Positions 1 to 33,829 of a stretch of 64,000 nucleotides of DNA are shown piece after piece. The notes under the pieces are model-generated. The model worked only from the letters and a program-made list of their open reading frames with translations, had not been told where the DNA came from and did not search any database. The position numbers and the translations under genes are program-made. The DNA comes from Gordius albopunctatus (Eukaryota), in the NCBI GenBank assembly GCA_964276515.1, contig OZ193910.1, positions 4,278,001 through 4,342,000 on the forward strand, in the 5' to 3' direction. Each line of letters begins with the position of its first letter. The stretch's first letter is position 1.

Positions 1-962
1 CAATACTGACTCACAGAACAATTAAGGGTGGAAGGATAAGGTGTTTGTTGTCAAAACCTTCAAAAATTGTTGAAAATAAACTCTACTAACAAATGATCGC
101 CTTAAATCAGATTAAAAAATTACATGAAGTCAAAATAGACGACACAAAGTATTGCTTCATGATAATGTACAATTACACAGAGCGCAACTGGTAAAGAAGC
201 GATTGAACGTTTGGCTCGACTAACTCACCACACTTGGCTCCGTCCAAATACTGTTTACACCACAAAACATGCACTTTTTAATTAATTTAAAAAAAAAATT
301 GACAGAGAAATCAATTTTTTGGATATTTTTGTCTAGGCAGCGATGTGCTCTATTTCGAACAAAATGTTTTAATCTTTTAATCATATATATGAAATAAACC
401 TAAATATACTATGCAAGCCGGGTTTTATATTTATATACTTCTAATCCTTTAACATTGCTTTCGCTACTTCTGCATAATATTCAAAAATAAAAAATTTAAT
501 ACCTAAATAAAGCAATATTAATGTGGCTAATAATTGCTATGTATTCAACTTGCATATAAAAAGGCCTATTTTCTGGATAAATATAAAGTCTTCTCTATTA
601 AAGTAAAGGTTAAGTCCTAATAGCTTTAGAGTTTCCTTCCCGAAAATCAAAAGGGTTGATGGGGCTTTGAGGGTGGGGGGACCTAAGTCGTCCTATCTGA
701 ATTTATTTTTTAATAAAAAAATTTAAAAAATCCTAAGCCATTATGTAATTTACATAAATTGTTATCGTGTGAAAATTCGCCCCAAATATCCTTTTTTAGA
801 TACCTATGTTCAAGCGCTATAAAATTTCAATATGTTTATTACCTATTTTTTCTAAAAAAAATTTGCACGGTTCTTCTAATTTTTATATTTGAAATTTTTT
901 CCAATTACACTGTAATCTTTTCTCCCCGCGGACGTATATATTGATATTCATTCATCTAAGCG

Positions 963-980: not shown

Positions 981-2864
981 ATGGCTGATCAAGTAATATA
1001 TTTATACATCTTGCAAATATATTAAGATAATGCTGCCAGCCCCTAATAAAAATTATATTCAAGAAGTTTATTACTCATTTTCTACTAAAAAAGATAAGAA
1101 ACTTAAGTTGGCTCGTAATTTGGATCACAACACTAATTTCTATATTTCCCCTAGTTTTGATAAATTTCTTTTTGAAGATGCCTTTGATATTGTTCATAAA
1201 TTATCGGAGACTTCTTATAGTGTTGTTTACGAAGTATTGGAAAAAAGCACAGGATTGTTATATGCCCTAAAAATTTCGCATCATTTGCATTTACTAAATG
1301 AGATGCCTTATAAATGCCTGCCTAAACATTATAATTGTGTTACACATTACAAATCATGGTCAGAAAATGGGTTTTATTTTATATTAATGGAATTGTGTGA
1401 AAGAAGCCTTTTATATTATGATAGAAACTTGATAATGTTGAGGCACTTGAAGAAATATGTAATTGACATCATCAAAGGTCTTAATATGGTGCATAATCAC
1501 AGTATATTACATCTTGACATTAAGCCAGAAAATTTATTATTGAAGGACAATATGTGTAAAATAGCAGATTTTGGTATATCCACCCATATAAGTTCAAAGC
1601 ACATAGATGATGATTATGAAATACTGCAAGAAGGAGATAATAAATATATGGCACCAGAATTATTAAATGGAATCTACACACCTGCAGCAGATATTTTTAG
1701 TCTTGGTCTTACTATTTTAGAGATTTCCACAAATTTAGATCTGCCAAATTTTGGTGAATGTTGGCAAAATTTACGTTCTAACTTGCTTCCTAATCAAATT
1801 CTAAAAAATTCAGGTTATCCTGAATATTTTTTTGACCCTATAAGATGGATGGTTCATCCTAACCATAGGTTAAGACCTAGTGCTGCTGATCTTTTGTTTT
1901 CTCTTGATACCTGGATAAAACATGAAAATGAAGGATATTGGAACCTTTTAAAATACAAATTTTATGAAGTCAAACACAAAACAAAGCATTTACATAAAAT
2001 ATTGTCGTCCTTTTTTAAATCTAAGCTTTCTAGTCTATTTCCTAATAAATTATACCAACCAATTGTATCACCCAAAAATCAAATTTTAAATAAATGTTAT
2101 TCACAACCAGTTAAAAAATATAACTTGAGTAATGTTAAAAAAGCTATAAAATTTGAATCACCTGATAGTTATAATGATCTTTCAATCTGTAAAAGTTTAA
2201 TTGATGAATTTGAAATTGCATCCACAATATGATATATTTTTAATTGTATTTTTATGTAGCTTTTTTAAATAAAATTATATCATGTTGGTTATGTTTATTT
2301 GTATATATCCATAATTTTAGACCGAAAGAGCTTTTCAAAAGCAACCTGCCATCTTTCAGAATCATAAGGCTGCAATTAAAAGGAATAAAAAAAGCTTGAG
2401 GTATTATAAAAATATAGGGCTTGGATTTAAAACCCCTCGAGAGGTAACTGAACTCAAACATTATATGATTAATTAATCTTATTTAAAGGCAATTGATGGT
2501 ACCTACATTGATAAAAAATGCCCATTTACTGGCAATGTTCATATACGTGGTAGAATTTTAACTGGCATTGTATTAAAGACAAAAATGCAAAGGACTATTG
2601 TAGTCAGGAGGAATTATTTACACTACATACGTAAATACAACAGATTTGAAAAACGGCACAAAAACATTTCAGTCCACTTGTCACCTTGCTTTAGGTATGA
2701 TTTTTTTTATATATATAACTTAAACAACACTTTTTAGGGATGTGGCAGTTGGTGATTTAGTTACAATTGGGGAATGTAGACCATTAAGCAAAACTGTGCG
2801 TTTCAATGTTCTAAAAGTTACCAAATCAGCTGGTGCCAGGAAGAAAAGATTTCAGAAATTTTAA
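981..2864 (+). CDS. RPS11: 40S ribosomal protein S11 (uS17); exons 981-992, 2321-2443, 2489-2694, 2738-2864
   Basis: Spliced translation [20 protein letters not shown]...[40 protein letters not shown]...[65 protein letters not shown]...FQKF*. All introns are GT-AG (1328, 45 and 43 nt). AATAAA at 2883-2888. Confidence 0.97.
1030..2232 (+). CDS. PKMYT1: Myt1/Wee1-family CDK-inhibitory kinase (PKMYT1-like), uninterrupted ORF nested in RPS11 intron 1
   Basis: 400-aa ORF with [18 protein letters not shown], the Wee1/Myt1 signature [12 protein letters not shown], and the Myt1-like [35 protein letters not shown] at 2268-2273. Confidence 0.88.
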   Translation: MLPAPNKNYIQEVYYSFSTKKDKKLKLARNLDHNTNFYISPSFDKFLFEDAFDIVHKLSETSYSVVYEVLEKSTGLLYALKISHHLHLLNEMPYKCLPKHYNCVTHYKSWSENGFYFILMELCERSLLYYDRNLIMLRHLKKYVIDIIKGLNMVHNHSILHLDIKPENLLLKDNMCKIADFGISTHISSKHIDDDYEILQEGDNKYMAPELLNGIYTPAADIFSLGLTILEISTNLDLPNFGECWQNLRSNLLPNQILKNSGYPEYFFDPIRWMVHPNHRLRPSAADLLFSLDTWIKHENEGYWNLLKYKFYEVKHKTKHLHKILSSFFKSKLSSLFPNKLYQPIVSPKNQILNKCYSQPVKKYNLSNVKKAIKFESPDSYNDLSICKSLIDEFEIASTI

Positions 2865-3619: not shown

Positions 3620-4617
3620 CAGAGGTCAGATTTGTTTGGAATTTTATGCCCGAACCTGGCCTGGTTCAATTTTTTAATCTCATTGCCCGCCCAAACCCTT
3701 CTAGGTGTTCACCCGGGCCCGCCCGAAACATTAGAGCTGCCCGAAATGCCGGGATCTCAAATTCTTTCAACCACTATTAAAAAATAAGCATTAAATTAAT
3801 CGCATCATATTGAATAAAACAAATATAGCAATATTTTTTTCCAGGTCAAAATCTAACTATATTATTTAACAGTCGAATGATTTTTCCAAATAAAACTTAA
3901 GATCTTTGATTTCAATCCTAATGGGTCAAAAGAATGTAGGATTTGGTCTTTCTAAAATATTTAGCCAGAATTTTTTTAAAATATTGTTATCACTGGCAAA
4001 ACCGCTCTAGGTCACAATATTTTAATATATTAATTGCTAATCTATTTAGGTACAAACATGTTTCACGTTTACAAATTATATAACAGCAAAATATTAATTA
4101 AATGCAGCTGATGTCCTTGAAAATATTTATATAGCAATTTTTTAATCAAGTTTAAAGTATACATATTTTATAAATAATCCTACAATAAACAAAATTATAC
4201 TGCCCTTTAGGGTTAACCCATTTAAGTCCCTACCCTATGAATAAACTTCTCAATGAATAATTGTCAATTAGTCAATCTGTGCTCTTAGAATTTGAACTTA
4301 CTTTTGTGATTAAAAACAATTTGAATGTAGCTAAAGCTAGGGATAGGTACTTGATGGAAATAGAGTGGTTCGGGCAAAAATTATAGAAATAACTTGAAGA
4401 CAGATAGAGAAATCATGTTTCTTAACTCTTTTAGCATTTTTATATACAATCAAATAAAAAAGTAACAAAATAATACATTATCTAAAAAATGTTATTAAGC
4501 CCAAATTGCCCGAATCCTATCATCGTGCCCGCCCGAAAATAAAAATTTAGGGCAGCTGCCCGGCTCACGGACCGGGCCGGGCATGTTCGGCCATTCGGCC
4601 GGGAAATCTGGTCTCTG
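3620..4617 (-). mobile_element. Non-autonomous hAT element
   Basis: Imperfect TIRs CAGAGGTCAGATTT / AAATCTGGTCTCTG, 8-bp TSD atccatag/ctccatag (7/8), and subterminal gcccg repeats. Same family as 16269-17641, in the opposite orientation. Confidence 0.85.
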
Positions 4618-4626
4618 CTCCATAGA

Positions 4627-7020: not shown

Positions 7021-9409
7021 GTTGTGCGATACAAGTTTAAACTTTGCTGACTCTTAACCTATTTTAGAGGACATTGTAGTGGTGGTGGAGCTTGTGTACT
7101 CTCGTGATCCAAGAAGCTATACCTTTGGTAGTCAAACACAATTTTTATGTTTGTTACTGGTGGGGTCACCCTATTGGCAAGGTTCTTGGTGAAGGGTCAG
7201 ACTAAAATTTCTGGGCTTTTTGAGGGAGTACTTAGTGAAAGATAAGTTTAATTCACCAAAATGACTGCATCATAAAGAATAGTAGGTAGTCAAACGCCAA
7301 AATCTAACATAGTTCCGTTAGGCTTGGAAGGCCGGGATATCAATACTCCCTCATTCCATATAAACCAAAATGTATACTACAACAAAGACGCAGAATGAAA
7401 ACCACAGGGCGTCCCCCTTAAACGACGCGCGCATTCTTCGCCTGGAATGTGTGAGAAATAAACGAAGGCTACCGCTCTCTCAACAAACGGAAGCGGTTAA
7501 AGACATTAGTTTGCGTAGGATAAGGTTTGGGTCATGGAATATTGGTACAATGACTAGCAAGAGCAGAGAATTGGCAGACGTTCTAAGGAGGAGAAAAATC
7601 GATATCGCGTGTATACAAGAGACCAAATGGAAGGGCCAAAAAGCAAAATACATAGGGGACGGATACAAATTATATTTTTACGGTACAGAAACTCACCGGA
7701 ATGGCGTCGGTATAGTGCTATCGGAATAATTTCAGCAAACTGTCGTCGACGTTAAAAGAATCAATGATAGAATTATGGCGATATAGCTTTGTTATAAATC
7801 TACTACAATAAACGTTATATCAGCATACGCTCCTCAAAGTGGATGCTCTGAGACGGAAAAAGAGTGTTTTTGGAAGGAGATTAAAGATGTTCTACGCCAA
7901 TTCGGTAAAGAGGGGCTAATAATTATCGGAGCGGACCTCAATGGACACGTGGGCAAATCAAGGGGAGGATTTGAAATAAATCACGGTGGTCGGGGTTACG
8001 GCCTAAGAAATGAAGGAGGTACGGAAATTCTAGAAATTGCTCAAGCTTTTGACCAAGCAATAGGAAATACCTTCTTCAAAAAGAGACAACAGAAACATCT
8101 TATAACGTACAAAAGCGGCAGCCGTACCACTCAGATAGATTTCTTTCTAGTTAACAGAGCGCACTTAAAGATGTTCAAAATGTTAAGGTAATACCGAGTG
8201 AAATATTGGCCTGCCAACACAAGCTGTTGGTGATGGACTTTATATTAAAGGGTCTTAAAGGGCAAAAGGTACAAAGAGTAGCCGCTACTATACAATGGAA
8301 GAAACTAAAAGATAATATTCAACATTTTCAGGAACAAGTAATTAAACATGCTGAATTTAAGGAAAATACTTCATGTGAGGATCAATGGAATGGTATAGCT
8401 GCCACAATGCGAAAAGCGCGACGACAAATACTAGGTGAAAGCAAGCCCAATAAAAGAATTCTCAGAAGTGCAAAAATGTATCAAGGAAAAGAAGAGATTG
8501 TACAGTGTGGTATAAAAGCAATGATAGTAATGATAAGCAAACTTACCAAGTTGCTAAAAGATCGGCTTAAAAATTCGTAGCCAAAGCTAAAAACAAGGTG
8601 TACGACGATATAAATGTAAAACTCAACTCAAAGGAAGAAGAAAGATTGATCTACAAAATCGCAAAGTCAAGGGCCCGAAATTCTAAAGATTACCTAGAAT
8701 GCCGGCTAATCAAGGGTCAAAAGGGAGAAATACTAACACACGACAGCCATATACTACAAAGATGGTACGACTATTATAGCGATTTATCAATTGAAAAGGG
8801 GCCTGTAGTCGAAGACACTAACCAGGAAAATACAATAGGAGAATTAAACACAGCGGACTGGATCACAGAAACGGAAGTCAAAGTTGCTATGGGTAGACTA
8901 AAGTCAGGAAAAGCTCTTGGACCCGACAATATACCAATAGATGGCTTCAAAGCGTTAGGCAATACTGGTGCACAATTCCTCGCTTACCTTTTCAATAATA
9001 TCTTGAAAACGGGTAAAATGCCTAACGAGTGGAGGGATAGCTACATCATCCCAATATACAAGATGAAAGGGGACATTCAGGATTGGATAAAGCTTATGAG
9101 TCACACTTTCAAGTTGTGGGAAAAAGTGATCGAAAAACGGCTTCGGAGTTTGGTTCAAATTCGAGATAACCAATTCGGATTTATGCCTGAGAGGTGTACA
9201 ACAGACGCCCTAAACAGTGTTAGAAGATTAATGGAACGGTTTAAAGAAAGGGAAGAGGATTTGCACATGTGGTTCATCTATCTAGAAAAAGCGTTCAATA
9301 AAGTTCCTCGTAATTTAGTTTGGAAATGTCTTGAAGAAAACAATGTGCCAGAAGTATACGTCAGAGCAATAAAAGATATGTACAAGGGAAATAGAACGTA
9401 CGTTAGAAC

Positions 9410-10172
9410 TGTCAAATCTTCGTAACAATTGAGGGGATTTATATCTCGGAAATGTAACGTGCTAGGGGTAGACGGGGAAACTTTTATGTCCTCTAAAATT
9501 TAGCGAGAGGAGTGCTGTGGGCCAACTAGGGGTTTTATCCTTTATTATCTTTTGCACCTTTATTCCCTTTTTCTGAAATCCTCAAACTACTTTGTTCAAT
9601 TCAATTTTTGTTTATTACAATATCACTCCAGGATTCACTACATAATAATGATAGGTATATTTAACTACGTAATGACGAAATAATTGTGGGAACAACAATT
9701 AGGGTACGGGGATATAATCAGTACTTTGGAAACAGGGGAAATTTTGGTTTTCTAATCGCGTAATTCAGATTCTCTTTTGTATTGATTTTCGTATGGCTTA
9801 TATAGGTCTTATTTTTCTGGCTTGTATCTCTATCCTTGAAACTTCTTTTCTTTTCGACCCATTTTACCGCGCCAACTTTTGATGAATGGCCCTTCACTTC
9901 CAAGGATCTTGGAATTTTCGGCTGACAGTTCTAGTTTTCCCCCTACGTTTCTTGGGCCAATTCTTTATTTATAACCTGGTTTTGCTGTATCCTTGCTTTT
10001 CTCCGCTACTTCCCTCGAGCCATGTTTTGCTGTATCCTTGCTCTATTTCTCTACCAACCCAATCTTCGATAATCTTCCTCCGTCCTTAGCCCGCCTTTCC
10101 TCTTATCACGTGCGCCTCCCTAATAAGGACTGGTTCCCTTTTTGGGAGCGAGGGTCGCATGTATACATGACA
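9410..10172. mobile_element. Solo LTR inserted into the LINE RT
   Basis: Termini TGTCA...TGACA with a perfect 5-bp TSD agaac (9405-9409 and 10173-10177). The RT frame YVRT|SVGITKGF resumes after it. Confidence 0.85.
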
Positions 10173-10944
10173 AGAACATCGGTGGGGATTACAAAGGGCT
10201 TTGCCATTAACACTGGAGTCCATCAAGGTTCAGCTCTTAGTCCCTTCCTATTCATAGTGATAATGGATAATATTACCAAGGATTTGGGCGAGGAAGCTCC
10301 TTGGGCAATAATCTTTGCAGGCGATATAATCCTCTGGGCCAAAAGTTAAAAAGAATCGGCAATACTGTAAATAGATGGGTAAATGCAATAGAAGAAAGTG
10401 GTCTCAAGGTAAATCGAAAGAAAACAGAATATATGAAGAGAAAGTTTAAATCGAATGACAACTTACAAGCGTGGACTCCTTCAAATATTTAGGATCAACA
10501 CTTCAATCGGATGGTGGAATGGATAAAGAAATCCAAGCAAGGATAAATTTAGGATGGCTCAAGTGGAGGGACTTGACAGGTGTTATGTGTGACAAAAACA
10601 TCCTAAGAAGTCTAAAAGGCGCACTGTATAACTCCATCATACAGCCAACAGTCCTGTATAGCTCGGAATCATGGGCTATACGTAAAAGAGAAGAGCAACG
10701 TCTTGCGGCCATGGAGATGAGAATGCTAAGATGGGTGCTAGGAGTAAGCAAAAACGGACATATGCGAAATGAAGAAATAAGAAGAATTGTGGGTACTACA
10801 TCAATTGTGACAAAGCTCCTAACAAATAGACTAAGATAGTATGGCCATGTAGAAAGAAGGGACGATAGCTACGTAGGAAAGAAAATCGAGATGATAAGTT
10901 TCGCAGGAAAACGAAGGAGAGGAAGACCCAAGCTTACCTGGATT

Positions 10945-11080: not shown

Positions 11081-12682
11081 CCTGGATTCATAAAATACGG
11101 CATGATATGAAAGACCACAAGATAAAGAAAGATCTATGTAAACATAGAAACGAATTCTGAAAAGACTGACCACAAGCCTAGGTGAAAAGCAGTCATAGAA
11201 AGAAGAAAATTAATTTAGTCTGTATTTAACCAATATGTATTTTTTTGTATTACAATTATATAAGTAACTTTGTTTTGGTGAAAATAAACTTTTTAACCAT
11301 TAAAAAGATATCTGATGATAATTAGCCACCAAACTTGAATTTAATCTAATTGTAAGCAAAGTTAAAAAATGATTTTACCCTTGGACTACAAGGATTTCGC
11401 TAAATTTGTTGTCAAAAATAGCGGTTTTAGCAAGTCATAAGCTCGACTCGACAAGTATTTTGAAATTAAAATTTTTAAATTATGTCTCTAAATCTGCTTT
11501 TTAAACTCTCATATTATAAATCACTGGTGAATTCAGATTTGCTATGCTTATAGACATAAAAAATCACCTTATATTTTTGTAAATGAAATATAAGAACATT
11601 AATTTTTGTATATTTTTAAGTCGTCAAACTTTTTGGCCCAAATATTTTTGTTTAAGTGAGGGAGAATAAACAAATTTTTAAGATTCCTAAAGCAGTAAAT
11701 TAGTTTTAAAGAACTATAGATCAAAACTAAATATGGTTATAATTTATTTTATTTGTGACGGTACAATGCAGGTTGATTTTATACTCACTAACTTTATTTC
11801 ATGCATATCCCCCCCCCCCCGTATTTATAATATAGGGGCATTCCATGTCAACCCGTCAGATTTTTATGGGATTGTTAAAAATATAGAAACTACTGATTTT
11901 ATGAAATTTTTAGCTCATTCGGACCTTTAATTTTTTGTTTTGGGGGCTCAAAGATCAAAATTCGCTATTTTACGACATTGAGGCAGGACGCTAAATTCGA
12001 TAATTTCTAAAATCTTTACCCTCTAAATATAAAATCTTGCTGCAGTGATAGGCGAGACCTGATCTCCATAAAAAAGTAAATTTCTTTTGTCGATTAGACA
12101 TTTGATAATGGCCGAAATTTCATTTTTACCATTGCCTAGTCCCAAACTTTCTAAAATTTAAAACAAATCTTTTTTACCAGCTATATAACAATAAAAAGTA
12201 GGCATGAGATAAAACTTTCAGAATTTTATTAAAATAAATCGTTTGAGTTAAACTGGAAATTTAACAGGCTGCAAAATTAATTGCAGACTATTAAAAAAAT
12301 TTATTAAGGGTATGCGTTTAATAGGGATGAGGATAGTTTAATTACGAATCTACTTGGATTCGAAGTTACTTTTGAGATTTAAAAGTTTAACTATCTACAA
12401 AACAATTTCCTAGTCTTTAACTCAAAAGTCCTTATGATATGTTTCTAATTTCAAAACACTTGCATATTTATTTTGGGTTAGAAACAATGCTTAATACAAA
12501 GAATTGTATCTAACTATGCATCAAAATGATATACAGTACGTCATCGTCACTGTTTAAGGGTAATGAAAACTTGCTAAATAACCAAGATAAAAGAGGGAGA
12601 TGTACTGAAAAGAAAGGGCATAAGGGAAAATAAAGAATATCTAAAGTCATGAGTGGAGAGAGAACTAAGTTGTGGTGAGTTT

Positions 12683-15600
12683 TTAAGCTGATGATTTGTA
12701 TTCCTTGAGAAAATTCTTGAAGCCTTCGGCATCGCGTTTCAACATGTTTGCGTTGATAGTTATATTTTCCACAGATTGCTGAATTGAACGCTCAGCCGCA
12801 GGAGCTTCGTGAGTTTTGAAGAAAGTCTAAGCAAAAAATATAAACGATTTTAACGTATTGATTTAAGCAAATCAATTTGAGTAACATAAAAACCATAATA
12901 TAATTCGTAATTTTTTCATATTTGGCTACAAGAAAAGGTTAATAATTTACTTCCACATCCTTTGCCATTTCTTCAGAGGCGAAGTTGCTGGTACAGCTCT
13001 GCCGTATAAAAGTATTATAATGTATATTATCAATTATTAAAAAATGTATTTTTTTGGCAATGAATTTCATGGTGAAAATTTTACCTTGACCAATCGAGAC
13101 ATGAGGGTAAGGCCAGAGTACCAAGATAGAACGCGATCCCAATTTTCCTTGAGGTAATCCCAAGTCATTTGACGGCCCAGCTTGTGACCGCACATGCTAC
13201 TAAACACGGATGCCTTGTCTTGTAAACGAATTTCATCCTAATCGCCACGATAATACAATAAAAACTGACACAAAAATTTTAGACGCTACGTCAAGAGATA
13301 ACAAAGAAAAGGAGGCATTTCACCATTAGCTATTTAAATCAAGTTAATTAGTATTTTGTCTCTATACTTGAACCGTTTATATATTTAAATTATAATTATT
13401 GTTGAGTAAATAAACTAAACACAACGCCAACCAACAAAAAATTTTAGGCATGCCGTGTATAATAATTTTAATTTATAAATCGAAAATTTAGGGGTTTAAG
13501 CCGTTATCCATTATTGATCAAAATTTACGTCAGTAAGGAAGATTAGTTTAAAATAAAGACACGCTTACGGTATTCGCCAATTCCAAAGTTTTACGAATCA
13601 ATTTTTCGTCCTCCTTCAGGCCCAAACGCGAATATATGCGTATCTTTTCTTCTTGTTGATCGCTCTTGCGCGCTATCTGATTTGAACCAAAAATTTCATT
13701 ACATTAAATTTAGCAACGTAAAAAATTAAAATATAAGAAATGGGTATAATATATTTTGATGAAATAAACGCAAGATTCCCAATTAAAGATGTGGCAAATT
13801 AGTAAGAATATGAGGGGAACTATGGTAAGGAGTATATTACTTGCAAAAAGCGATCGTACATCTTTTCGTCGGCATCGGATAGCATAGCGGTGTAAACCTG
13901 GAAATAATGTAACTCACTTCAGATTTTTTAGTTTCTTTTATAAATACATGTCTCAAACAAGCTGCAAAGATATAAGCAATTCAACAAAAGCCCTAAAAAC
14001 ATTAATTAACATAATTAGTTAGCCAATTGAAACTTTTTCAGATATCTCCAAAAAACAATAATAAAACGCGATTATATACAAGAAAACGGGGGAAAAAGTA
14101 TAAAAGTCTCCAAAAATCAAGAGCATGGATGAGGCAATTTTTATTACCACAGCCCTCAAGTCACCAGACATTTCGCAGGAGCCTCCGCATAAGGCTTCGA
14201 ACCTGCGAGCCGCCTCTTCCTTTACTTCGGGGTACCCATAACGAGCCAGTCGCGATAGGATGATGACGCGCAACATGGAATTAACGTGATCTATAAGCAT
14301 TTGCACAAGATACGTATAGATCATAACCTCAAACCCATAAATTGCATAGCATTTGATACGGTGTAACTAGTGCTGTGCAGGAGCGCGTCATTTAAGACCA
14401 GCGCTATTAAAGAGGTAAACAGACTTAGTACCATCACCATTATATGTGTCCATTGTGAGATGCGCTTCCCTAATTCCCTTCCCCATGGTCCCAAATCTTA
14501 GAGGGGCGAGCGCTGTTATTTTCATAGCACCGCCGCATGTGCTCTGTTTTTAAACACGGGATAAATAGTCAAATTTTTAGGGGCTATTAGTAAATTTAAC
14601 AGCCATCTAAAATTTTAAAGAAATTTCCCGAAACGCAATTTGAAAAGTATTAAATCGAATCTTACATGCCTATAAACATATATCCTCAAATGACATTCTT
14701 TCAAAGGTTACTATTTTTAACCTCAAACCCAACCCAAAAATAGGAATTATTAATTGAATAAGCGCCAAAAAAGGACCAGAGCTAAACATGAATAACAAGC
14801 AGGAATGTAACCCTCAACTCAACGACCCCGAAATTGTAAAAAAATTTATCTTTAATAAACGACCTTTATCTCGCACACCCGCTGATTCCATGATAAGTTC
14901 ATAGTTATTTTAATTTCGACCCAAGCTTGCCCGACCGTCCATTAAAAACAAGTTAAGCTATATTTGGTTCATTTACTCTCTCCAGGCTTTGGATCCCAGC
15001 CGAGCTTTTTGTAGATGGGGGTCAAGAGGTCGCAAGTGAATTGCTTGTACCGTTTTTGTGTTTCAGATTCGATCCGAGACAAGCTGACTTGAGCACCTTC
15101 CGCGTATTGGGACAAGATGGCTAGGGTACTGAGAGAACCAGAGATGTCGCACCAAACTGCGTAATCCGTTTCATTCTTGTAAGCCTGCAGCAAAGTTAGG
15201 AAGGGAGCCACTGGCAAAACTCCCGCTTGCACCTGAAACAAAAATATGGTGTGGTCGTTTAAGAGCGCGATGAAAAAGCATGAACAAATTTGTTGTATTA
15301 AAGAAATTTTCATAGGCATGGCAGTGGGATAAAATATTTAGCAATTCATTTACAACCAACACCGCCATTATATCCTTAACTTGCAACCTCAACTTATTAA
15401 AAAATGCTAATTTATGTAGTTTACTAATTTCAACATTTTGACATAAGGCAACATTTATAGGAATAGCATATATTTAAATTTCAAAATTTCGATGGAATGC
15501 AATATAGGCGTTTGCGAGTATGATTAGGAGCATAAATCTTCAAAAGGTGAGATACAAGCATACTAGATTTCTAATTAATTTGTTGCAAAAAACGTGTGAT

Positions 15601-18600
15601 TTCAAATAAGGCAACAAGGTAGATGATACCAAAGCAAAGGAATCCGATTCGATCCCATAACGATCCAGGGGAGCTAGAGTGTTATCCTTGATGCCCGACA
15701 TGATAGCAGCCAACATCTCGGGGGAGTAATGGATGCGACAAAAACTGACCGTGTTGCAGTTAAGCTAGAGATTAATAAAAATAAAAATTATTAGAAGCTT
15801 TTTAAGATTCGTTTCATTGTAGGGAAAATTTATTTTTAAATCTTTTCATCTTAATGTTAAAACATATTTTAAATGAAGCTTATAGGTAAACAACATGTTC
15901 AATTCAATATTTTACCAGTAAACATTTCAACTGCCTAAATAAAAAATTTTATCCTTAAAAACGGCACTAAAATAGTGAAAATCTATATTTTCACCGCAAA
16001 TTGAAAGCCAAACATACTTTGATCCAATCCTCGGGCGGTACGTTATCAACCTTGATTTCCATGGACGGTTTGTCAATGAGCGTGGATGTTATGTGCTCTT
16101 TGGGATGACTCTTGGAACAAAACGTCATGGGAATTTCCCACACGGTACCGTCTACATTAAACGAGGTCATGCACAAAATTACCTTCTAATCCACAAAAAT
16201 AGTTCTTTTTATTATATTAAATTGTGGAATGGGGGGCTATTAACTAAGGGCATGCATAATGTATATATCAGAGACCAGAAATGCCCGGCCTCTTAAATTT
16301 TAATTTTCGGGCGGGCCCGGGCGGGCACGCTGATAAGATTCGGGCAATTCGGGCATGCCCAAAATTTTATCAAATTAATTTTCCTTGAAAAAAGAAAAAT
16401 TCGCTTATAAACAATTTTGGGCCATAATAAATGTGACTAGATATTTTTTCATCGCTTAAATCTTCATTGTACGTTTATATAGTGTCCTAATTTCAATTTC
16501 TTCAAAATTAAATTTCATTTCGAATAAATTAGTTTAACTGGTTTGTCTCAAGATCAAAAATTTTTAATTTTCAGATTATATTATAAAAGAATAAAATCAC
16601 AACGATTTTAACTGCCATGGGCGTAGACAAGGGGGGTGGGGGGCAGCTGACCCTCTCTAAACTCAAAAATTGTTAAAATGTATTAAAATTATGGCTAAAT
16701 TTTTAAAAAATGATCATTTTGCCCCTTCCTAAATCATTATTGCCCCCCTCTAATTTTAATGCTGGCTACGCCCATGTAAACTGCTACTCTAATCTAATAC
16801 TATGGAAGAAACCATTTTACTCTCTGGTAGTAAATTATTTTATTACATTTTTATCGCGTTCAGTTAAATCTTTGCCCTACTCCATTATGGAAAGGATTGG
16901 ATTATTTATATTTATGTAGTAGCCAAAGCCATTTCATTGTTCGCAATACACTACACATGTGTGCCGTCTAGACTTAAAACAAAGGCTCATGCCATTTTCT
17001 AACAATGCGCATAATTGTAATTCATTTAATTTCTTAACAACTAAAAAAACAAGATAGAAAAATAAAGCAAACAAGTCACATTAAAGTTATTAAAAATTAT
17101 AACTATTTTAGGTATCCTAAATTAGCAAGGCTTACAAAAATACTCTTTGCCATCTCGGCGACGAGTGCTGCTAGTGAAAGAAGTTTTTCTATCGCAGGAA
17201 GATTAATAGAGGAAAGACGCACAAGATTATCCCCGGAAATTGTCGACGATATGAATAAAATATTGTCATCTTTGTTCGGATCAATATGCCATTGCTTATT
17301 TTGTAATAGTGGCTAAAGATTTTGGGATTGGATAATTTTGGGTCTACCGGGAAAATTTTATTAATCAGGCCGGGCAGCTCTAATGGTTTGGGCATGGCTG
17401 AGCCGACACTTAGAAGGGTTCAGGCGGGCAATTTAGTTAAAATTGGACCGGGCCGGGTTCGGGCAGAAAAATTTAAACTACTCCGACCTCTTTTTGGGAC
17501 CTCATAAATTCGGGACTAACGGGCAAATTTAATATTTCGGGCCGGGAAATTCGGGCAGCTTTAACAATTCGGGCGGGCCCGGCGGGCAATGTTTAGTCGG
17601 GCCGGGTTCGGGCAGAAAATTCCCAACAAATCTGACCTCTGGTATATATTATAGTACCCCCAAATCAAGGGAGGCTTATAGTGAGGCATAAAACCATAAA
17701 CGTAATCGGTTTAATTGCAGATTAATATTGATTTTTCGTTGAATAGAGCAAAAACTCTGGGCCAAGTCTTTGGAACAGTTATGGGGTTGACAAATAATTA
17801 TGTAAATTAGTGCATACCATTAACGGGTCCCTGCAAAAGAAACTTTTTCTGCGACATTTTGATCTTGCGGGTGTTCCCTTCTTTCACCTCCTCAACCTAT
17901 AACCGTAAAAATATATAATACACGTTAACCATTGCCTACGAATTACCAGATTTTAATTAATTTTTACAAAAAGCCATCAAACAAACTACGAAAATACTTT
18001 AATACTCGAGAAAAATTTAAATTTAAACAAATCCCATTTTTGGGATCCAAACTCGATCATAAACTTATTAAAGATACACGCAACCATATAGAATGACCAC
18101 GTCCATAGTAATTCAAAGTTTGACATAAAATCTGCACTAACTATTCAAGGTAAGCCTTTCGCCAAAATCCTCAACAAATTTAAAGTCGGTCATAAGCGAT
18201 TTTTGATTTCCAAACGCAGGGTTTATTGTTTGGGATGACCTTAAATCTACTTTTATATAATGCCAAGTTTTTGATGAGTATTAAGTTACAAGAACATTGG
18301 TGGGTGGGTGGCAATAACAGTACCCCTTAAAACCTTTAAAAATTAAATTTCTCGCAAATTCTAAATAATTTTCATCAGTTAATATACCCAATCCGTAATG
18401 AATCATCCTTATAAAGGTATTTGTCAGAACTTACGCTAACTAGGGGAAACCCAATTTTCTTGTACCAGGTTTCCATGGACTTCAAATTTTTACCACTCGA
18501 TTTTTCTAGCGCCTCCATGAAGTCGTCTATGGTGGCGTTGCTAAACTTGAATTTGTTGAGGTAGATATTGAGAGCCTTCCTGAAAGCCTACCAATAAATA

Positions 18601-21600
18601 AATAAATGCAGGTATAATAATTAATCAACAGCTGTTAGTAGTTTAAATCTTTTCCGAACGAAACACCAATTTTGGATATTTTTCATTAATATTGTAAAAA
18701 TGACAAAAATTGAGTCACAAACTAAATAGTTTAATCTAGATAAGATATTTGTGAATCGATTCCCGACCGCCATAAATGTCTCAAATCAACATAATCAACT
18801 CCGCAATTAACGAATCCAAATAAACCTGATCAGTTTAAAAATGTAAGATTTTAAATCCAATATCTCGATGCTTCCCAATAATTCAGTTTTTGCCTAAAAT
18901 CAGCCATCTGCTAATCATGAAGTAACAACCTGCCGCCCGACCCCTGTGAAATTCAACCAAATCCCGATAACGATAAAGTTTACTAACTTTTACCTATAAT
19001 ATTTTTTAGAGATTAACATATAATTATAAATTCTGTATTTGGCTAAGGGCACTTTAAATCGAATTTCGATACAAAAACATGTACTCAGCCTTTTCACTTC
19101 TCTTTACAGTTTAAGATTAATATAAATCCAACCTCTGGTCCACAATATTCGTTCATCATTCGCAAAAATGAAGCACCCTTTTCGTACGAGATGGCATCAA
19201 AGATTTCATCGATTTCGTGGGGATGCTCCACGGTAACCTTACATAAGTATTAGGAGATTATCATCAATTCACTTCTTTTCCATAATTTAAACGAAATTAA
19301 GCCAAAAGCGGGTGAAAAATCTAGATAAAGCTTAAAAATTTGAAGGCAAAAACAAACGAGCTGGTAAAAATATTAAATCTGTGCAATCAAATGAATGTCG
19401 CTTAAAATAACAACGCTCATAGCAGAGAACATTACTTTAAGGTGTATAAGCTATTAGTATGTAAAAAGGTCACTTAAAATTATCCGCGTCAAAACTGCAT
19501 AAATTGTCAACAAAACTGTGTCATCAATAAGGACGTACGTAGCAATCAAGAATTCAAAGGTTAACATAGGTTTGATAAATTTCGTAAAAATCATCGTTAA
19601 TTTTAGGGCAAAAATTGATAAATAAAAAATCACTGTATAAATGTTAAAGTGTGAACTTCGATGGGATGGCTAGTGGCCAAAGAGTCGAGGGAAATGCCCT
19701 CGTGGAAGCTGGAGGAAACGAATTGAGTCCAAATATCGTATTCCGGGTAGCATTGACTTATGCAATGGAAGGAGACCCAAGTGGCGAAGCCTTCGTTCAA
19801 CCACAAATACGTCCACCATTCCTTTTACATCAAAATAAGAAGCACGAATGTTAAAAAGTTTCAAAGTGATACTAACTTAAATTATTTAATAACGGATTGT
19901 GATGCAAAATAATAGGGATAAAGTTGTTAGATACCTAAATTTACGAAGATTATATATAATTTATTCTTGCTAGCTTTAAAAGCTAAGCTACCACAAAAAA
20001 CTTGAGCGTATCTCGAGGTATAAACATTTAAGCATTCCTTAAAGACAATTTCAGAGTATTGGAGTTACATATATAATTTTATAGGTTCTTATGGTACTGA
20101 GTACAAATCAAACTCACCTCAAAAAGTCATATTAAAGCTCGTGATTCGCAAAAACTTTAAACGAAATATCTTAAAGTTACATATTAAACGCCACGATAAA
20201 AAATATGTGTGTCTTACCATGGTTGCCAGGTTACCGAACCATTGATGTCCCAATTCGTGAGCTATTAAATGAATAATATTATACAAGTTTATTAAAAATA
20301 GTATTCTATCAAACATTTCGTCGAGATATGCAATAGGCGTTGTAGTGGTCTTTGTTAGCCCGCATAATAATTAAAACACATCAGCTAGAGTATATTTATG
20401 ATCTAATTGCACTGTTATGAGACGGTCACTAGCGCAACAAAGTAAAAGGCTATTAAATTTTGCCTATATATTCATCATTTCTCCCATATTTGCAAGTTTA
20501 AAAGTCCCTGTTCATAGACCATAGAATTTTCAACGGAAAATAAAGTAAGACTCTCATTTAAATTTAAAGTAGGGAGATGGAATAAATTCTTCAACTTAGC
20601 GAGGAGCTTTGTCCTAAGATTTGCTTAAAGACTGATAATGCAAGACTCGAATTATCGTTCAGCTTCTAGAAAAACGACCTAACCGAGAATTTTGGACATT
20701 TGACTTTTATAAATATATATGCTTTTTTCCCATTGAAACGGGTGAATGATTCTTGCGATAATTGAAACCAACGCATTAAATCCAATAATATCCCAGCAAC
20801 AAGGTGAAATAGTAAAACTAAACTAAACTTTTAAATCATAATTCTGTGGATTAAGAAGATATTAGCAATCTTACCCACGACTATGGCAATGTAATTTTTG
20901 GTGTTGGTGGATGAGGTCTTCTCGTCTAGCAATATACAAACCTCGCGGAACGTTATCAAACCCCAATTTTCCATGGCGCCTAGGAATAATTAAAAATTAT
21001 TTAATTAACTTAGTGAAAATAAGTTATCATCACTATAATAAATAATTACGTTTGGGTAAAATAATTTGTTATGACCACTACTACTATAAACTTGACAAAA
21101 AAAAGGATACGATTGCAAGTGCTTAACTTTAGTGTATAATTTACCGAAAGCAAAATCGGGGATGGATATCAAATCGCATTTGGGCAATTCGTATTTGATG
21201 CCAAAGTAATCTTCGTAAAAGGCCAAGGACTTGATAGTCACCTAAAGGTATCCGTTTTAAAAGGAAAAATATGGGAAAATGCAATTTTTTGCCTATATAT
21301 AAGGTAACTTGCTAAGGATACCCGCCTCACTTTAGCTATGATGATAATAAAAGCATGACAAATAAATATATGGTATTAGACATATTCCAAACAAGTATAA
21401 TAAATAACACGATAAACTTAATATATCGTAAGTTAGAATGATTTTGTGGTATGGATAAGGATGCGATAGAACTATAATAACCTAGAATATTTTGTTTTGG
21501 CGCTAGCTACTTTTCAAAGAGGTAGACCGTGAAAGTCAAATAAACGCCCCATCAAACCCAAAAAGTACTCGAGACCGTTATGGAGCCAAACACAACTACT

Positions 21601-24600
21601 CAAGTGCTTAAAATGCGTATGCAGAAAGGTTATCATCGCAGCATTGGAACTTTGATCGAGACCTTAAACACTTTAATAACAACACTTTTGAGACGATATA
21701 TAATACTTACTTCTAAGGCAAACTTTCCCTGCTCCTTTTTGCCGATGGGTGTGTAGACGCGGCAAACCACGCCCCGGTCGCTTTTACCCTCCACATAATC
21801 GAATTCCCCGACCACAAAAGCGACGAGATAGGTGGACATGATGGGTGTACACTGAAATTTAACCGTTTTTTCGCCTGCCTTCTCATCCAAATCCTCCTTT
21901 TCAGGTGGCTACTCGTAGGCACATAAATATATATAGTTACGTTGTGATCGGATAGAAAAATAAAAAGTAGCCATTTTTTGTATAACATCTATTTGGTAAA
22001 AATGGATTGAAATCTCGGTACGAGCTTCCCTTAATGGCTGCTTATAGTGTTATAAAAAAGGCGGGGACTCGACTATATACTATACCATTAACGAACCGAA
22101 GGTTTGACAGGCTTGACTAAAGAACCTTAAAGGTATTTTTATGGGACTAAGAAAAGGAGAACAAAAAAGGTCTGCTCATATTTAGTAGACTAAAGCCAAA
22201 GGTCGACCAACAAAACCCCCCGCCGTTTCTACAACGACGCCAGCTGGTTACCATACTTGACACCAGCCCCATTTTAACGTTTTATATCAAAATTATCATG
22301 GAAAATGTGTCGGAATTTCAAAATAACATCGCATGGCTAGTTAATACACTTCACGCCAGGGTGATTTTTTAAATTTTGGATAGAAATCGTGTTAAAATCT
22401 CTCAATAGCATCATCGCCCATTCTCAATTTCAATAATCAAATATAATATTACACCAGGGGGTTTAAAAGGGATGACGTGCTAGAATATGGTATAATAGTA
22501 AAGAAGCGATGTTTTTAATTGGATATTATTCATTCAAAAAAAGCAGGGTTGATAACCCATTAAGCTAGCAGCCGCTCAGGCCATTATTTAGGAAAAAGTC
22601 AATTTTTCATCTACATGATAGTTAGCTCGTGCGATGTAAACAATGGGAAAACGTAAAAAATTATATCCCAAAGCAACTTGTCACTTGAAAATACATGGTA
22701 AACCTGATATTTGCTCTCTCAAAACTTGATTCACGCGGTACATAACACATTATTTATACGAAAAAGCAGGTGGCAAACGCGTAGTTTGGGTAAAAAACAA
22801 AAGTTGTCGCTCTGCCTCGGAGCGCCTAATTTGGCGTATTCGTTCAGGACAAAAAGTGTAAAGATTAGGGGGGGGGGGGGTTAATAAGTGCCAAAAACGT
22901 ATATTTTTACCCCGTTAACCTATTATTGACGCCGATGGATTAAAATCGATTTTGAAATATATAAAACGAAATTCTATTGTGCAAAATTATTGGCAGCGAT
23001 AGACGGCAATTGGCTCTGTGCTTGAGCAAATTTTGATAGGAGGTGCCAAAATTATATTATTTTTAAACCCTCACCTAATCCCCCTCCCCCCTCCCAAGGG
23101 CTTGTGTCTTAATATCGGATTTAGCTGCGCAGCAAAAATCGTTATACGGGTTATAACATAGCCCCGTGTGTCTTAACTTGGAATTCACAGCGGCAGATTT
23201 ACGTTTCAGACGACGCATAACATAGGAGCGATTAATATCAAGAGTTGAAAAAATAAACGGAAAAAGAGTTTTAACTATCAAAAAACAAAATACTAATAAT
23301 TACAACCGAGTTTGAGACATGAAATTGAATCATAGGATATCTGATAAAGATAAATTCGCGCCATTTGAATCTGAATCCGATATTAAGACGTAATATGGCG
23401 CTCAAAAGATTAAATGAATTTAGTTGGATGACCTCAATTGAATAATAGGGGTTAATGGGATTCACCAAGGCTAAAATAAAAATACTGCACCTTGCTAAAA
23501 AATATTATGGGCAAAAGTTATGATTTTTTGTAATTATATTAATGATTGAATCAATATTCATTTTTCATCATCATTTATTCATAGTTATTTGGCATTTGTC
23601 ATTAGTGGATGCAAAAATTTTTGATTTTTTAATATGGTTGAAAACTAGAGAAGCATTGTAACTTTTATATTAGATAAATTTCATTGTGCAAAATGTTTCT
23701 AAAATTATAATTGACAAATATGGGCTTAGCATCAATTCTACAAGTGAACCTAGAATTTGGTTGCTTGTTAGAAGAAATAAAAAACATGTTTCAGATAGAA
23801 GATTATTAACTATTAATATTAGGTTTAAACATGATTGTAAAATATTGATAAAAAAAGAACAGCTAAAATAATAGATTTTTCAAGGTATGAGCTTAAACAA
23901 GTCTTTAGTTAATTTTTACACATTGGCAGGCCAATAAAGCAAAATTTATACGTTTAAGAACTTTCATGGTAAAAAAATAATTAAAATGTGCATGGTAAAA
24001 ACAAATAATAAATTGTTATTAATAACCCTTTGAAAACATATAATAGAGTTTCATGACTTTTTTATAAATTTGTTAAAACAGGTACAAAAAATATATACAT
24101 ATATATAAAATAAATCAGACTTATTAATTATAAATTTAAACAGCGCAACTATAAAATTAAAATAGAATTGTGACTCAAAACTCATTTAAAGCATATTAAA
24201 GTTTAAGAGGTCTTTAAACAATCAACTAAAATATTGTAAATAAAAATAAAAAGCATTAGTGTAATTTTTAAAACAAAATTACCATGTTGGATAGAGCTAC
24301 AAAATCTTTTGGTGCTACAAGGGTTATTGAAAATTTAGATTTGATAGCTGGTTCATCCCAACAAGGAAAAGCACGTCTGGCATCAGTTGACTACCAGAAA
24401 AATTTACCAAACTAAATATAAAATACCTCAAAGTGAGTGGTTGCAGCTATCTTTTCTTTTCCTTCATACAGATATTTAGTGAAGTAAAAGCCTCTCATTT
24501 TATCAGATAGTTTGCCACTAAAGGAAAGATTCAAATCAGCCTTTCCAGGGTCAATAACATTTGGAAATTTTAGTATGGCTTGTTCATTTTCCAAATCATA

Positions 24601-24929
24601 AGAAATTATGGGTTTCAATGTTTCTAATCAAACTTCAAGAAAATGTGTTTTATATTTACCTTTCTTATCATTTGTTAAATAAGCTTCTTTAATATCTAAT
24701 TCAAGCGAGTTCAATACAATTTTATCCACAGCTTCTTTGACCTTTATAAAAAATAGATATACGACTACTATAAAATTACTTCCAAATTGATAGTTTCTGA
24801 GCCATGAAATATTAAGTCTTTGAGGTTTGGCTGAAGTTTTACGTCGTAATGAGTTGGTATCACACTTTTAGGTAAACGTTCAAACTTTTTCTTTTCAACA
24901 AGTCCATGCGAATGATAGCCCATAGTCAT
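12683..24929 (-). CDS. NPEPPS: Puromycin-sensitive aminopeptidase (M1 family), multi-exon; first exons 24929-24780, 24741-24660, 24623-24427, 24390-24283, last exon about 12826-12683
   Basis: [58 protein letters not shown] (about 20960-20980); [15 protein letters not shown] (about 20218-20260); [27 protein letters not shown]-terminus [16 protein letters not shown]...SSA*. Later internal exon boundaries were only partly resolved. Confidence 0.93.
16269..17641 (+). mobile_element. Non-autonomous hAT element in an aminopeptidase intron
   Basis: TIRs CAGAGACCAGA / TCTGACCTCTG with a perfect 8-bp TSD gtatatat. About 17113-17255 encodes [42 protein letters not shown] (hATC). Confidence 0.92.
16616..16776. 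mobile_element. Small hAT-type MITE nested in the hAT element
   Basis: TIRs catgggcgtag / ctacgcccatg with TSD ttaactgc/taaactgc (7/8). Related partial copies at about 48078-48190 (+) and 54037-54187 (-). Confidence 0.85.
23098..23390. mobile_element. PIF/Harbinger-like MITE (degenerate copy)
   Basis: Ends gtcttaatatcggatt / aatccgatattaagac; homologous to 44838-45202. Confidence 0.7.
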
Positions 24930-26887: not shown

Positions 26888-28156
26888 ATGACATCGGGTG
26901 ACCTTGGTAATAAAGCTGATTCAATAATTAATTTGAATGTAGGCGGTCAACAATTTTCTACAAAATTAGCCACTCTAATCGAAGATGCTGCAGTCTCATC
27001 AAAATTTAGAGAATGGCTCTTACCAATTCCAAGTCTTGGAAAAGATACTGATGGGCGCTATTATATTGATCGAGATCCTGAGCCATTTTACTTAATTTTA
27101 GAGTATTTGAGGAGAGGATCATTACCTGCGAATTTAGAAAATTACTTAACTGAAATGCTTATTACAGAGGCTAAATACTACAACATACCATCACTAATAG
27201 ATTTCTTGTTAATCACGAAAGAAAATAAAGTTGGTTTTAAACCCGCACTTTCAACATTTAAAGATAATTCAAGCTTCGTGAAATTCAAAGAAGCCTTTAA
27301 AAATATGATTTTACATAGAGTAGTGGAATGTTTGAAAAATGATTATACAGACGATATCAAACTTTGGATATATTTATCAAGCGACAACGATCAACAAAAT
27401 GTAAATGGCGAAAAGGCAAGTTTATTTTTGTGATTAAATTGAACACTAATTCCCAAAAACAAAGTGGTTCGATTAATTTCTAAAACCGCTTTATTTTTAA
27501 GGTTACTTTAAAATTAATCTTGTGAGCTATTATATTAAAACATTTTGGGTTTATATATAGAAATGTCTTGTAAATAATAATCAACTTTTAAAGCCCATCC
27601 TTTTAAGTATAAAATTCTGTTGTTACAAAAATTGCATTGCTAGAAAATTTTGCAAAAAATGTCAATCATATATGTTTATAAATATTTAATATGAATTTTT
27701 GTTATATTGCGTTGCAAGGAATCTTATGGGATTGACGAAAATTTATTTGCTGAGGCTATTGCAATATCGGAAAGTTTCATAATCTTGTTAATGCACGGAA
27801 TAAATAAGAGCAATCCGACTCCCTTAGATGTCAGTAATGATAAAGATATATTCAAAACCTACAAAAACTTAATTCTAAATTCAGCGTGGGAATTAAGCAT
27901 ATCAGGTTTTTCAATTCGACTTAAAACTCCTATCTTAAAAAGTGGCAATTTAAAAATTCCAAATTCACTAGTAGAAGTATGCTTTCCTTTTATTTCAAAA
28001 CAGAATAGTGAAAGTTTCGATTCAAAGCTTGATATTTTGCGAGACATCGATTCCTTATTAACAGCAATTAGTAACCGAATGAAAATTATAAATTTGGGGG
28101 CTCTAAGATTGCAGAGCGTCTCCGAGCGAGGTGATCTTAATAAAAGCAAAATATGA
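26888..28156 (+). CDS. BTB/POZ-domain (KCTD/T1-type) protein; probable exons 26888-27415 (or -27400) and 27719-28156
   Basis: IINLNVGGQQFSTKLATL...DTDGRYYIDRDPEPFYLILEYLRRG..LITEAKYY is a T1-type BTB domain. Phase-0 donors aat|gtaaat (27401) or aag|gcaagt (27416) join in frame to acceptor gcaag|gaa (27718). The second exon is inferred. Confidence 0.75.
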
Positions 28157-31730: not shown

Positions 31731-31866
31731 CCCCCCCCCCTTATTTTTTATCCTCTTTCTCACCAGAGAGGAGATGGGGGCCCCCGGTGAGAAAGAGGAT
31801 AAAAAATAGGGGGGGGAAGCAAAACACCCTCCCCCCTGGTGAGAAAGAGGGTAAAAAATAGGGGAA
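31731..31866. repeat. Short G/C-run palindrome
   Basis: Arm cccc..ttattttttatcctctttctcacc pairs with ggtgagaaagaggataaaaaatagggg, which is present twice. Confidence 0.7.
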
Positions 31867-33770: not shown

Positions 33771-33829
33771 AATTATGGAGGAATCATAACTATAAATAAT
33801 ATATCTAAAATTTACATAAAAATTATCTA

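Follow-up and report, generated by a model that had tools for sequence, protein, structure and literature searches.

The window analysed here, a 64,000-nt stretch of DNA from the hairworm Gordius albopunctatus, raises the question of how a kinase reading frame that lies within intron 1 of RPS11, a ribosomal protein gene on the same strand, could be expressed when its own start codon at 1030 sits just 49 nt behind the start codon of its host at 981. The features on which the answer depends are collected in Table 1.

Table 1 Features of the RPS11/Myt1 locus, in the order of their positions in the window
Feature	Positions	Strand	Remarks
TCT-type initiator match, predicted; candidate start C917	916..922	+	One of 2 YCTYTYY matches in 601-1100
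Second donor-like GT 934; also TATA-like box TATATA 935-940	934..941	+	Donor score 1.74
AG closing a 27-nt AT-rich GT..AG stretch (934-960)	959..960	+	20 nt before RPS11 ATG
RPS11 coding exon 1 (Met-Ala-Asp-Gln)	981..992	+	Gordionus RPS11 (P0122) begins with these four as well
14-codon uORF of the unspliced RNA, stop TAA 1023-1025	981..1025	+	Ends 4 nt before ATG 1030
RPS11 intron 1, 1328 nt, containing the kinase gene	993..2320	+	Inferred from protein match
Candidate 34-nt intron GT..AAG, first 34 nt of RPS11 intron 1	993..1026	+	GC 0.18; predicted
AAG in the kinase frame	1024..1026	+	Three codons before Leu-Pro-x-Pro; aligns with Lys3 of Gordionus Myt1
Myt1/PKMYT1 ORF, intronless, 400 codons	1030..2232	+	Wholly inside RPS11 intron 1, same strand
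Competing acceptor CAG, out of frame; 47-nt intron, 80-codon non-kinase frame	1038..1039	+	Score 2.4 vs -3.1 for AG 1026
AATAAA (2268-2273), then G/U-rich stretch; predicted polyadenylation site of the kinase transcript	2268..2302	+	Just before RPS11 acceptor
RPS11 exon 2	2321..2443	+	Distal acceptor AG 2319-2320
RPS11 exon 3	2489..2694	+	Preceded by 45-nt intron ending AAG; X1 and X5 contigs skip 45 nt GT..AG
RPS11 exon 4	2738..2864	+	Preceded by 43-nt intron; X1, X2 and X4 contigs skip 43 nt GT..AG

The four exons of the host gene give an RPS11 product of 155 aa, of which 134/155 residues are identical to RPS11 of Gordionus. The start codon stands in a strong context (A at -3, G at +4), and an AATAAA at 2883 lies behind exon 4. 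Introns 2 (45 nt) and 3 (43 nt) are bridged, without other letters, by contigs of runs that we took to be RNA. These five runs (X1-X5; word shares 0.05-0.12) are represented by contigs only and cover parts of RPS11 exons 2-4; they stop short of exon 1 and of the kinase and are uninformative on expression either way. One X1 contig that extends into exon 2 but differs at its 5' end comes from RPS11 of another organism and was excluded. Two other runs, X6 and X7, pass through all introns without joints, which is the behaviour of DNA, and the stretch is covered by two DNA runs for which no substitutions are listed.

Judged by its matches, the 400-codon frame is a Myt1/PKMYT1 kinase, unrelated to the host RPS11. 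In a comparison with the PDB its closest solved structure was human PKMYT1 (E 1.5e-36), compared to 6e-21 for the best Wee1-family match. The top protein match came from the nematomorph Gordionus sp. (E 4.9e-69, the next match having 2e-48), and the named top matches were nearly all Myt1. Identity to the longer of two Gordionus models is 52% over 325 aligned columns. A tree of 21 proteins joined the hairworm kinase pair at 100/100 with 1.56 changes per site between them; it contained no verified Wee1 outgroup, and it carries a long-branch warning for the pair. The catalytic Lys, HLD, DFG and APE are all retained, and the N-terminal Leu-Pro-x-Pro and Phe-Ser-Thr-Lys-Lys motifs are present. The glycine-rich ATP-binding loop (GxGx[FY]G) is found in 114/119 homologues and is absent from the window and Gordionus kinases; in the window it is degenerate or replaced at 1192-1220, corresponding to kinase residues about 55-63. 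Ahead of helix C, both hairworm kinases also have a segment ~9 residues shorter than that of other Myt1 proteins. The loss of the loop would put kinase activity in question, not descent from Myt1. In the hydrophobic segment behind the kinase domain, the region of the membrane anchor, the best 19-residue hydropathy is 0.32 in the window protein, 1.1 in Gordionus and 0.83-2.21 in nine others. The reading frame is complete from its own ATG 1030, which has an A at -3 and is preceded by the same three bases as the start of an aminopeptidase gene elsewhere in the window.

The closest listed relatives of both proteins come from Gordionus, where RPS11 and Myt1 carry consecutive accessions, namely CAK9301164.1/CAK9301165.1 in the submitted annotation and XP_065321566.1/XP_065321565.1 in RefSeq; both pairs are listed with a contig of 34,615,747 bases. 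Since consecutive accessions in two annotations point to neighbouring genes, the RPS11-Myt1 pairing appears to be old. The order of the accessions is reversed between the two annotations, which would fit, as a faint indication, one gene nested in the other. Gordionus Myt1 has a Met five residues before the Leu-Pro-x-Pro motif and a Thr at the position of the Met in the window. Neither Gordionus model starts with RPS11 residues: the submitted one begins at its own Met and the RefSeq one 96 residues further in. The latter (P0001, compared to P0121) thus lacks the first 96 residues, the start of the N-lobe included, which is likely an annotation artefact of a nested 5' end. The two models suggest that the 5' end is not settled there, though very short introns can escape gene finders.

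The searches for further hairworm kinases returned distant sequences. An N-terminal HMMER search gave 69 matches, the best at 1.5e-9 and none of them close, and 0/3 candidates among shorter proteins proved to be a further hairworm kinase. The metagenome contigs contained one locus at 31% and no hairworm kinase, and the 80 loci kept from prokaryote genomes were all distant kinases, without any hairworm sequence. Among the papers listed in literature searches, which included Gordionus and Nematomorpha, none dealt with a Myt1/RPS11 arrangement.

An earlier note on this DNA had proposed that the RPS11 donor at 993 can be joined to the AG at 1025-1026, which would remove a micro-intron of 34 nt and fuse the beginning of RPS11 to the kinase. 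All of its coordinates are correct. This AG is the first one after donor GT 993. As the note had described, excision of 993-1026 brings exon 1 into the reading frame of the kinase, with a single Ile codon between it and ATG 1030; the fused frame has 405 codons. The note was also right that, with the segment retained, the RPS11 ATG opens a 14-codon uORF closing just ahead of the kinase start. Its estimate that a coincidence of frame has a probability of one in three was too generous. Among 200,000 shuffles of 995-1029, 20.7% contained an AG 30 nt or more behind the donor, 7.2% contained such an AG that was also in frame and open, and 2.7% had one precisely at position 1026. A chance estimate of ~7% for an in-frame AG is suggestive; it favours the splice without settling the matter.

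We compared the candidate with the introns annotated in the window. These number 23 in RPS11 and the aminopeptidase gene together and have a minimum length of 36 nt, which puts the candidate 2 nt below the shortest of them. The five short ones measure 36, 36, 38, 43 and 45 nt with a GC content of 0.16-0.22, compared to 0.18 in the candidate. No branch points were definable from these five introns. Introns of 36-38 nt, to which the note had pointed, are indeed found in the aminopeptidase gene, and adjoining matches to residues 83-138 and 139-174 of human PSA confirm the second of its 36-nt introns. Its remark on AAG acceptors elsewhere in the window was likewise accurate, as they close 4/23 annotated introns, one of which (the 45-nt intron of RPS11) is bridged by the contigs taken to be RNA. 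In the main text of two nematomorph genome preprints the word 'intron' is absent; their supplements may hold intron statistics.

The puromycin-sensitive aminopeptidase gene itself occupies 12680-24929 on the minus strand with 21 exons and 886 codons. Its first three introns (38, 36 and 36 nt) are accompanied by AT-rich exons, and its later exons are GC-richer; GC3 is 0.51 overall in this gene, 0.30 in RPS11 and 0.23 in Myt1. Further along the window there is an ORF at 26888-27433, which we take to be BTB/POZ-like, followed by a second frame of 153 codons at 27695-28156, and a minus-strand gene with apparently one intron at 34735-37169, presumably heparanase-like according to its motifs. A short, GC-rich, MITE-like element with gcccg repeats recurs at 3620-3780, 4495-4625, 16270-16360 and 17320-17650, with two copies in aminopeptidase introns. 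Decayed retroelement frames are located at 7364-10870, 31760-33783, 50620-51711 and 59080-63462; from their motifs we assume them to be RTE-like LINE, DIRS-like and LTR-type pieces.

As an acceptor, AG 1026 has a score of -3.1, which is reached or beaten by 187/356 decoy AGs and by 18/23 true acceptors (leave-one-out). The acceptor matrix derives from 23 introns of two genes, RPS11 and the aminopeptidase gene, and separates true sites poorly from decoys. Because the matrix is weak, the score shows only that the site is not distinctive. In 5/17 long introns an AG 30-45 nt from the donor is left unused by the productive path, and three of these score at least as well.

The triplet that ends the candidate intron may also have a coding history. 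Position -3 relative to the Leu-Pro-x-Pro motif is Lys or Arg in 40/63 Myt1 N-termini and Lys in Gordionus, the 63 being those Myt1 proteins, among 121 examined and with many related mosquitoes, in which the motif matched the pattern. Because a conserved Lys codon AAG automatically yields an in-frame AG, its presence could be explained without selection for splicing. AAG accounts for only 8/40 Lys codons in the kinase ORF, and given this usage and the 1.56 changes per site between the hairworms, a non-coding AAG under no selection should have been lost by now, unless it is a recent relic. We infer that the acceptor at 1026 probably derived from an old Lys codon of the Myt1 N-terminus. Of the 63 proteins, 26 begin four positions ahead of the motif, and a single one (Chironomus, P0038) begins directly before it, with Met-Leu-Pro as in the window. 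Since the window kinase (Met at -1) and the Gordionus kinase (Met at -5) both have an in-frame Met of their own, a fusion to RPS11 is unnecessary for a full kinase. The absence of RPS11 residues from both Gordionus models likewise speaks against the fusion.

The region upstream of exon 1 offers a second donor and more than one possible 5' end. Positions 917-992 consist of alternating blocks, GC-rich at 917-933 (GC 0.65), AT-rich at 934-960 (GC 0.22) and again GC-rich at 961-992. The TCT match in Table 1 follows the initiator consensus YCTYTYY as given in an extract of PMC5580651. The donor score of GT 934 is reached by 19/415 decoy GTs, and 7/23 true donors score lower or equal. The TATATA next to it lies about 30 nt before a pyrimidine run at 964-973. 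These blocks would reflect either an intron of very small size in the 5' UTR or a pyrimidine-rich start with a TATA box ahead of it. Joining 933 to 1027, with 93 nt removed, drops the RPS11 ATG and leaves the full 400-codon kinase to be read from the first ATG.

At the other end of the kinase gene, the AATAAA and its G/U-rich tail fall within the 88 nt that separate the kinase stop from exon 2; the hexamer occurs in 5/95 intronic windows of 88 nt. An acceptor-like AG at 2259, strong with a score of 3.3 over positions 2240-2259, lies between the kinase stop and this poly(A) signal.

Together, these observations lead us to the following explanation. An RNA from the RPS11 promoter must either remove or use ATG 981, because the two start codons lie only 49 nt apart and that of RPS11 is in a strong context. 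The kinase gene is nested on the same strand, has no space for a promoter of its own, is followed by a poly(A) signal and is paired with RPS11 in Gordionus as well. These points support one transcription unit with two outcomes, and the RPS11 promoter is likely shared with the nested Myt1 gene. The AG at 1026 is probably used, whatever the route that leads to it. We tentatively place a 34-nt cis-splice of 993-1026 ahead of every other single route to Myt1. The intact, intronless Myt1 gene would then serve the RPS11 transcript as an alternative last exon. In most RNAs donor 993 would be joined to 2321, making RPS11. In a minority, the same donor would be joined to AG 1026, and these RNAs, with a predicted end at the poly(A) signal at 2268, would encode Myt1 with the four residues of RPS11 in front. 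The weak proximal acceptor would keep Myt1 at a small fraction of the output of a strong promoter. The earlier note had read the choice between the two acceptors as a binary switch, with reinitiation or leaky scanning as the alternative. The part of this reading that finds support is the shared unit with two outcomes; reinitiation is weakened by the strong RPS11 ATG and the 4-nt gap. Four points had been missed in it: the Lys/Arg at position -3, the completeness of the kinase from its own ATG, the better AG at 1039 and the donor at 934. The weights that we give to all routes are a matter of judgement and were not computed.

The same acceptor could be reached from further upstream. Transcription would begin at the TCT-like element at 917, GT 934 would be spliced to AG 1026, and translation of Myt1 would start at its own ATG 1030 after a short leader of pyrimidines, with only a non-coding exon shared. 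We regard this as unlikely, but as the strongest of the rivals. It accounts for both AG 1026 and the kinase's own ATG and is favoured by the well-scored donor, the GC contrast of 0.65 to 0.22 and the full TCT match at 916-922. However, the TATATA at 935 may represent a TATA box that precedes the start, in which case donor 934 would never be transcribed, and the route requires bypassing the stronger donor 993. The matching RPS11 intron 934-960 would moreover be only 27 nt long, and an AG at position 27 is ignored in a 36-nt aminopeptidase intron. Spliced-leader trans-splicing is an improbable further way of using AG 1026, in which the 5' end of RPS11 would be lost as an outron and the leader would be attached 3 nt before ATG 1030. 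In nematodes, the usual sister group of the nematomorphs, trans-splice sites are typically an AG immediately ahead of the start codon, and both this position and this kinship speak for the route. An AG 16-21 nt before the ATG is also found in RPS11 (AG 960), the aminopeptidase gene and the BTB gene, but the heparanase-like gene has no AG within 40 nt before its ATG. A cis donor 34 nt upstream of AG 1026 would compete with the trans-splicing reaction. Furthermore, a literature search joining 'spliced leader' and nematomorph(a) found nothing, so that within the library searched the machinery is undocumented in this phylum.

If 993-1026 were instead kept in an RNA ending at 2268-2290, ATG 1030 would have to be reached by leaky scanning or by reinitiation after the uORF. 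The uORF does close ahead of this ATG, which has its A at -3, and it may be speculated that a small leak from a ribosomal-protein promoter could suffice. This route has a low probability in our judgement: it has to contend with the strong context of the RPS11 ATG, it leaves the in-frame AAG to chance (2.7-7%) or to the status of a recent relic, and the gap between uORF and ATG 1030 is only 4 nt, while ribosomes that have translated a short uORF usually have to cover a minimum distance before they reinitiate, a requirement that some factors might lift (extract of PMC5972666). A comparably small chance is given to a second transcription start between the two ATGs, which would produce a short-leader Myt1 mRNA independently of RPS11 splicing. 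The in-frame Met in both species would suit such a start, as would the fact that both Gordionus annotations give a separate kinase without RPS11 residues. It would have only 46 nt of room, though, matches to Inr, TCT or TATAWA were not found in 984-1029, and the AT-rich run at 997-1006 would put the start at or past the ATG. That the kinase is a dead passenger, an unexpressed retrocopy with an AG that is noise, is very improbable. The missing loop that 114/119 homologues possess would agree with this, but the 400 open codons, the intact catalytic motifs, the 52% identity to a Gordionus kinase sharing the loop loss, and the conserved RPS11-Myt1 pairing in Gordionus all argue against it.

Returning to the 34-nt splice, a more far-reaching version can be drawn. 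In it, hairworm Myt1, a brake on mitotic entry, would be placed under a ribosomal-protein promoter, and a 34-nt intron with an acceptor from an ancient Lys codon would form a binary switch like that of Caenorhabditis elegans unc-60. The uORF would silence the unspliced form, and the arrangement would have persisted across a deep split of the phylum together with the loss of the glycine loop. Taken as a whole, this version is rather doubtful. If it were true, a CDK1-inhibitory kinase would be hard-wired to ribosomal-protein transcription in a little-studied phylum, and the locus would be a compact case of a nested gene that captured the first exon of its host, with an acceptor made from an existing codon and an intron at the lower size limit. 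The analysis also flags an annotation problem, since the two Gordionus models of the kinase differ by 96 N-terminal residues.

The nested architecture with a shared first exon is itself already well precedented. In the cholinergic locus, VAChT lies inside the first intron of ChAT on the same strand and shares 5' sequence with it. The products of VAChT and ChAT act in one pathway, whereas no link in a pathway is established between Myt1 and RPS11. Compared to other Myt1/PKMYT1 genes (wee-1.3-like), the gene in the window is intronless and nested, its glycine loop is degenerate and its hydrophobic segment is weak.

Other relevant systems are described here from extracts of the respective papers. 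RBM12/CPNE1 and other pairs (Yang et al. 2008, PMC2568002) resemble the locus in that unrelated genes share a common promoter and the most 5' exon. The poly(A) signal of the shorter gene was proposed there as one point of control (PMC2568002). Such pairs match the route through the upstream donor at 934. The exons shared by RBM12 and CPNE1 are non-coding (PMC2568002), whereas exon 1 in the window carries the start codon of the host. In C. elegans unc-60, which encodes UNC-60A and UNC-60B, one first exon serves two downstream series, and the binary choice between them depends on whether the proximal intron is removed or kept (Ohno et al. 2012, PMC3469465). Both products of unc-60 are cofilin isoforms and the regulators are ASD-2 and SUP-12 (PMC3469465), unlike the window, where the products are unrelated.

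The closest known system is Su(var)3-9/eIF2gamma of insects (Krauss et al. 2006, PMC1435931). There, too, a single-exon regulatory gene lies in an intron of a strongly expressed gene of the translation machinery, and a small share of the output of the eIF2gamma promoter was proposed for Su(var)3-9 (PMC1435931). The shared promoter, the shared coding 5' exon or exons and the 3' alternative splicing through a weak acceptor (PMC1435931) correspond to the model proposed here. The insect proteins share 80 residues and both mRNAs were shown (PMC1435931). In contrast, the locus in the window would have only four shared residues and a 34-nt intron, and its guest keeps its own Met. With these differences, the RPS11/Myt1 locus would work like the nested genes with a shared first exon and probably is one of them.
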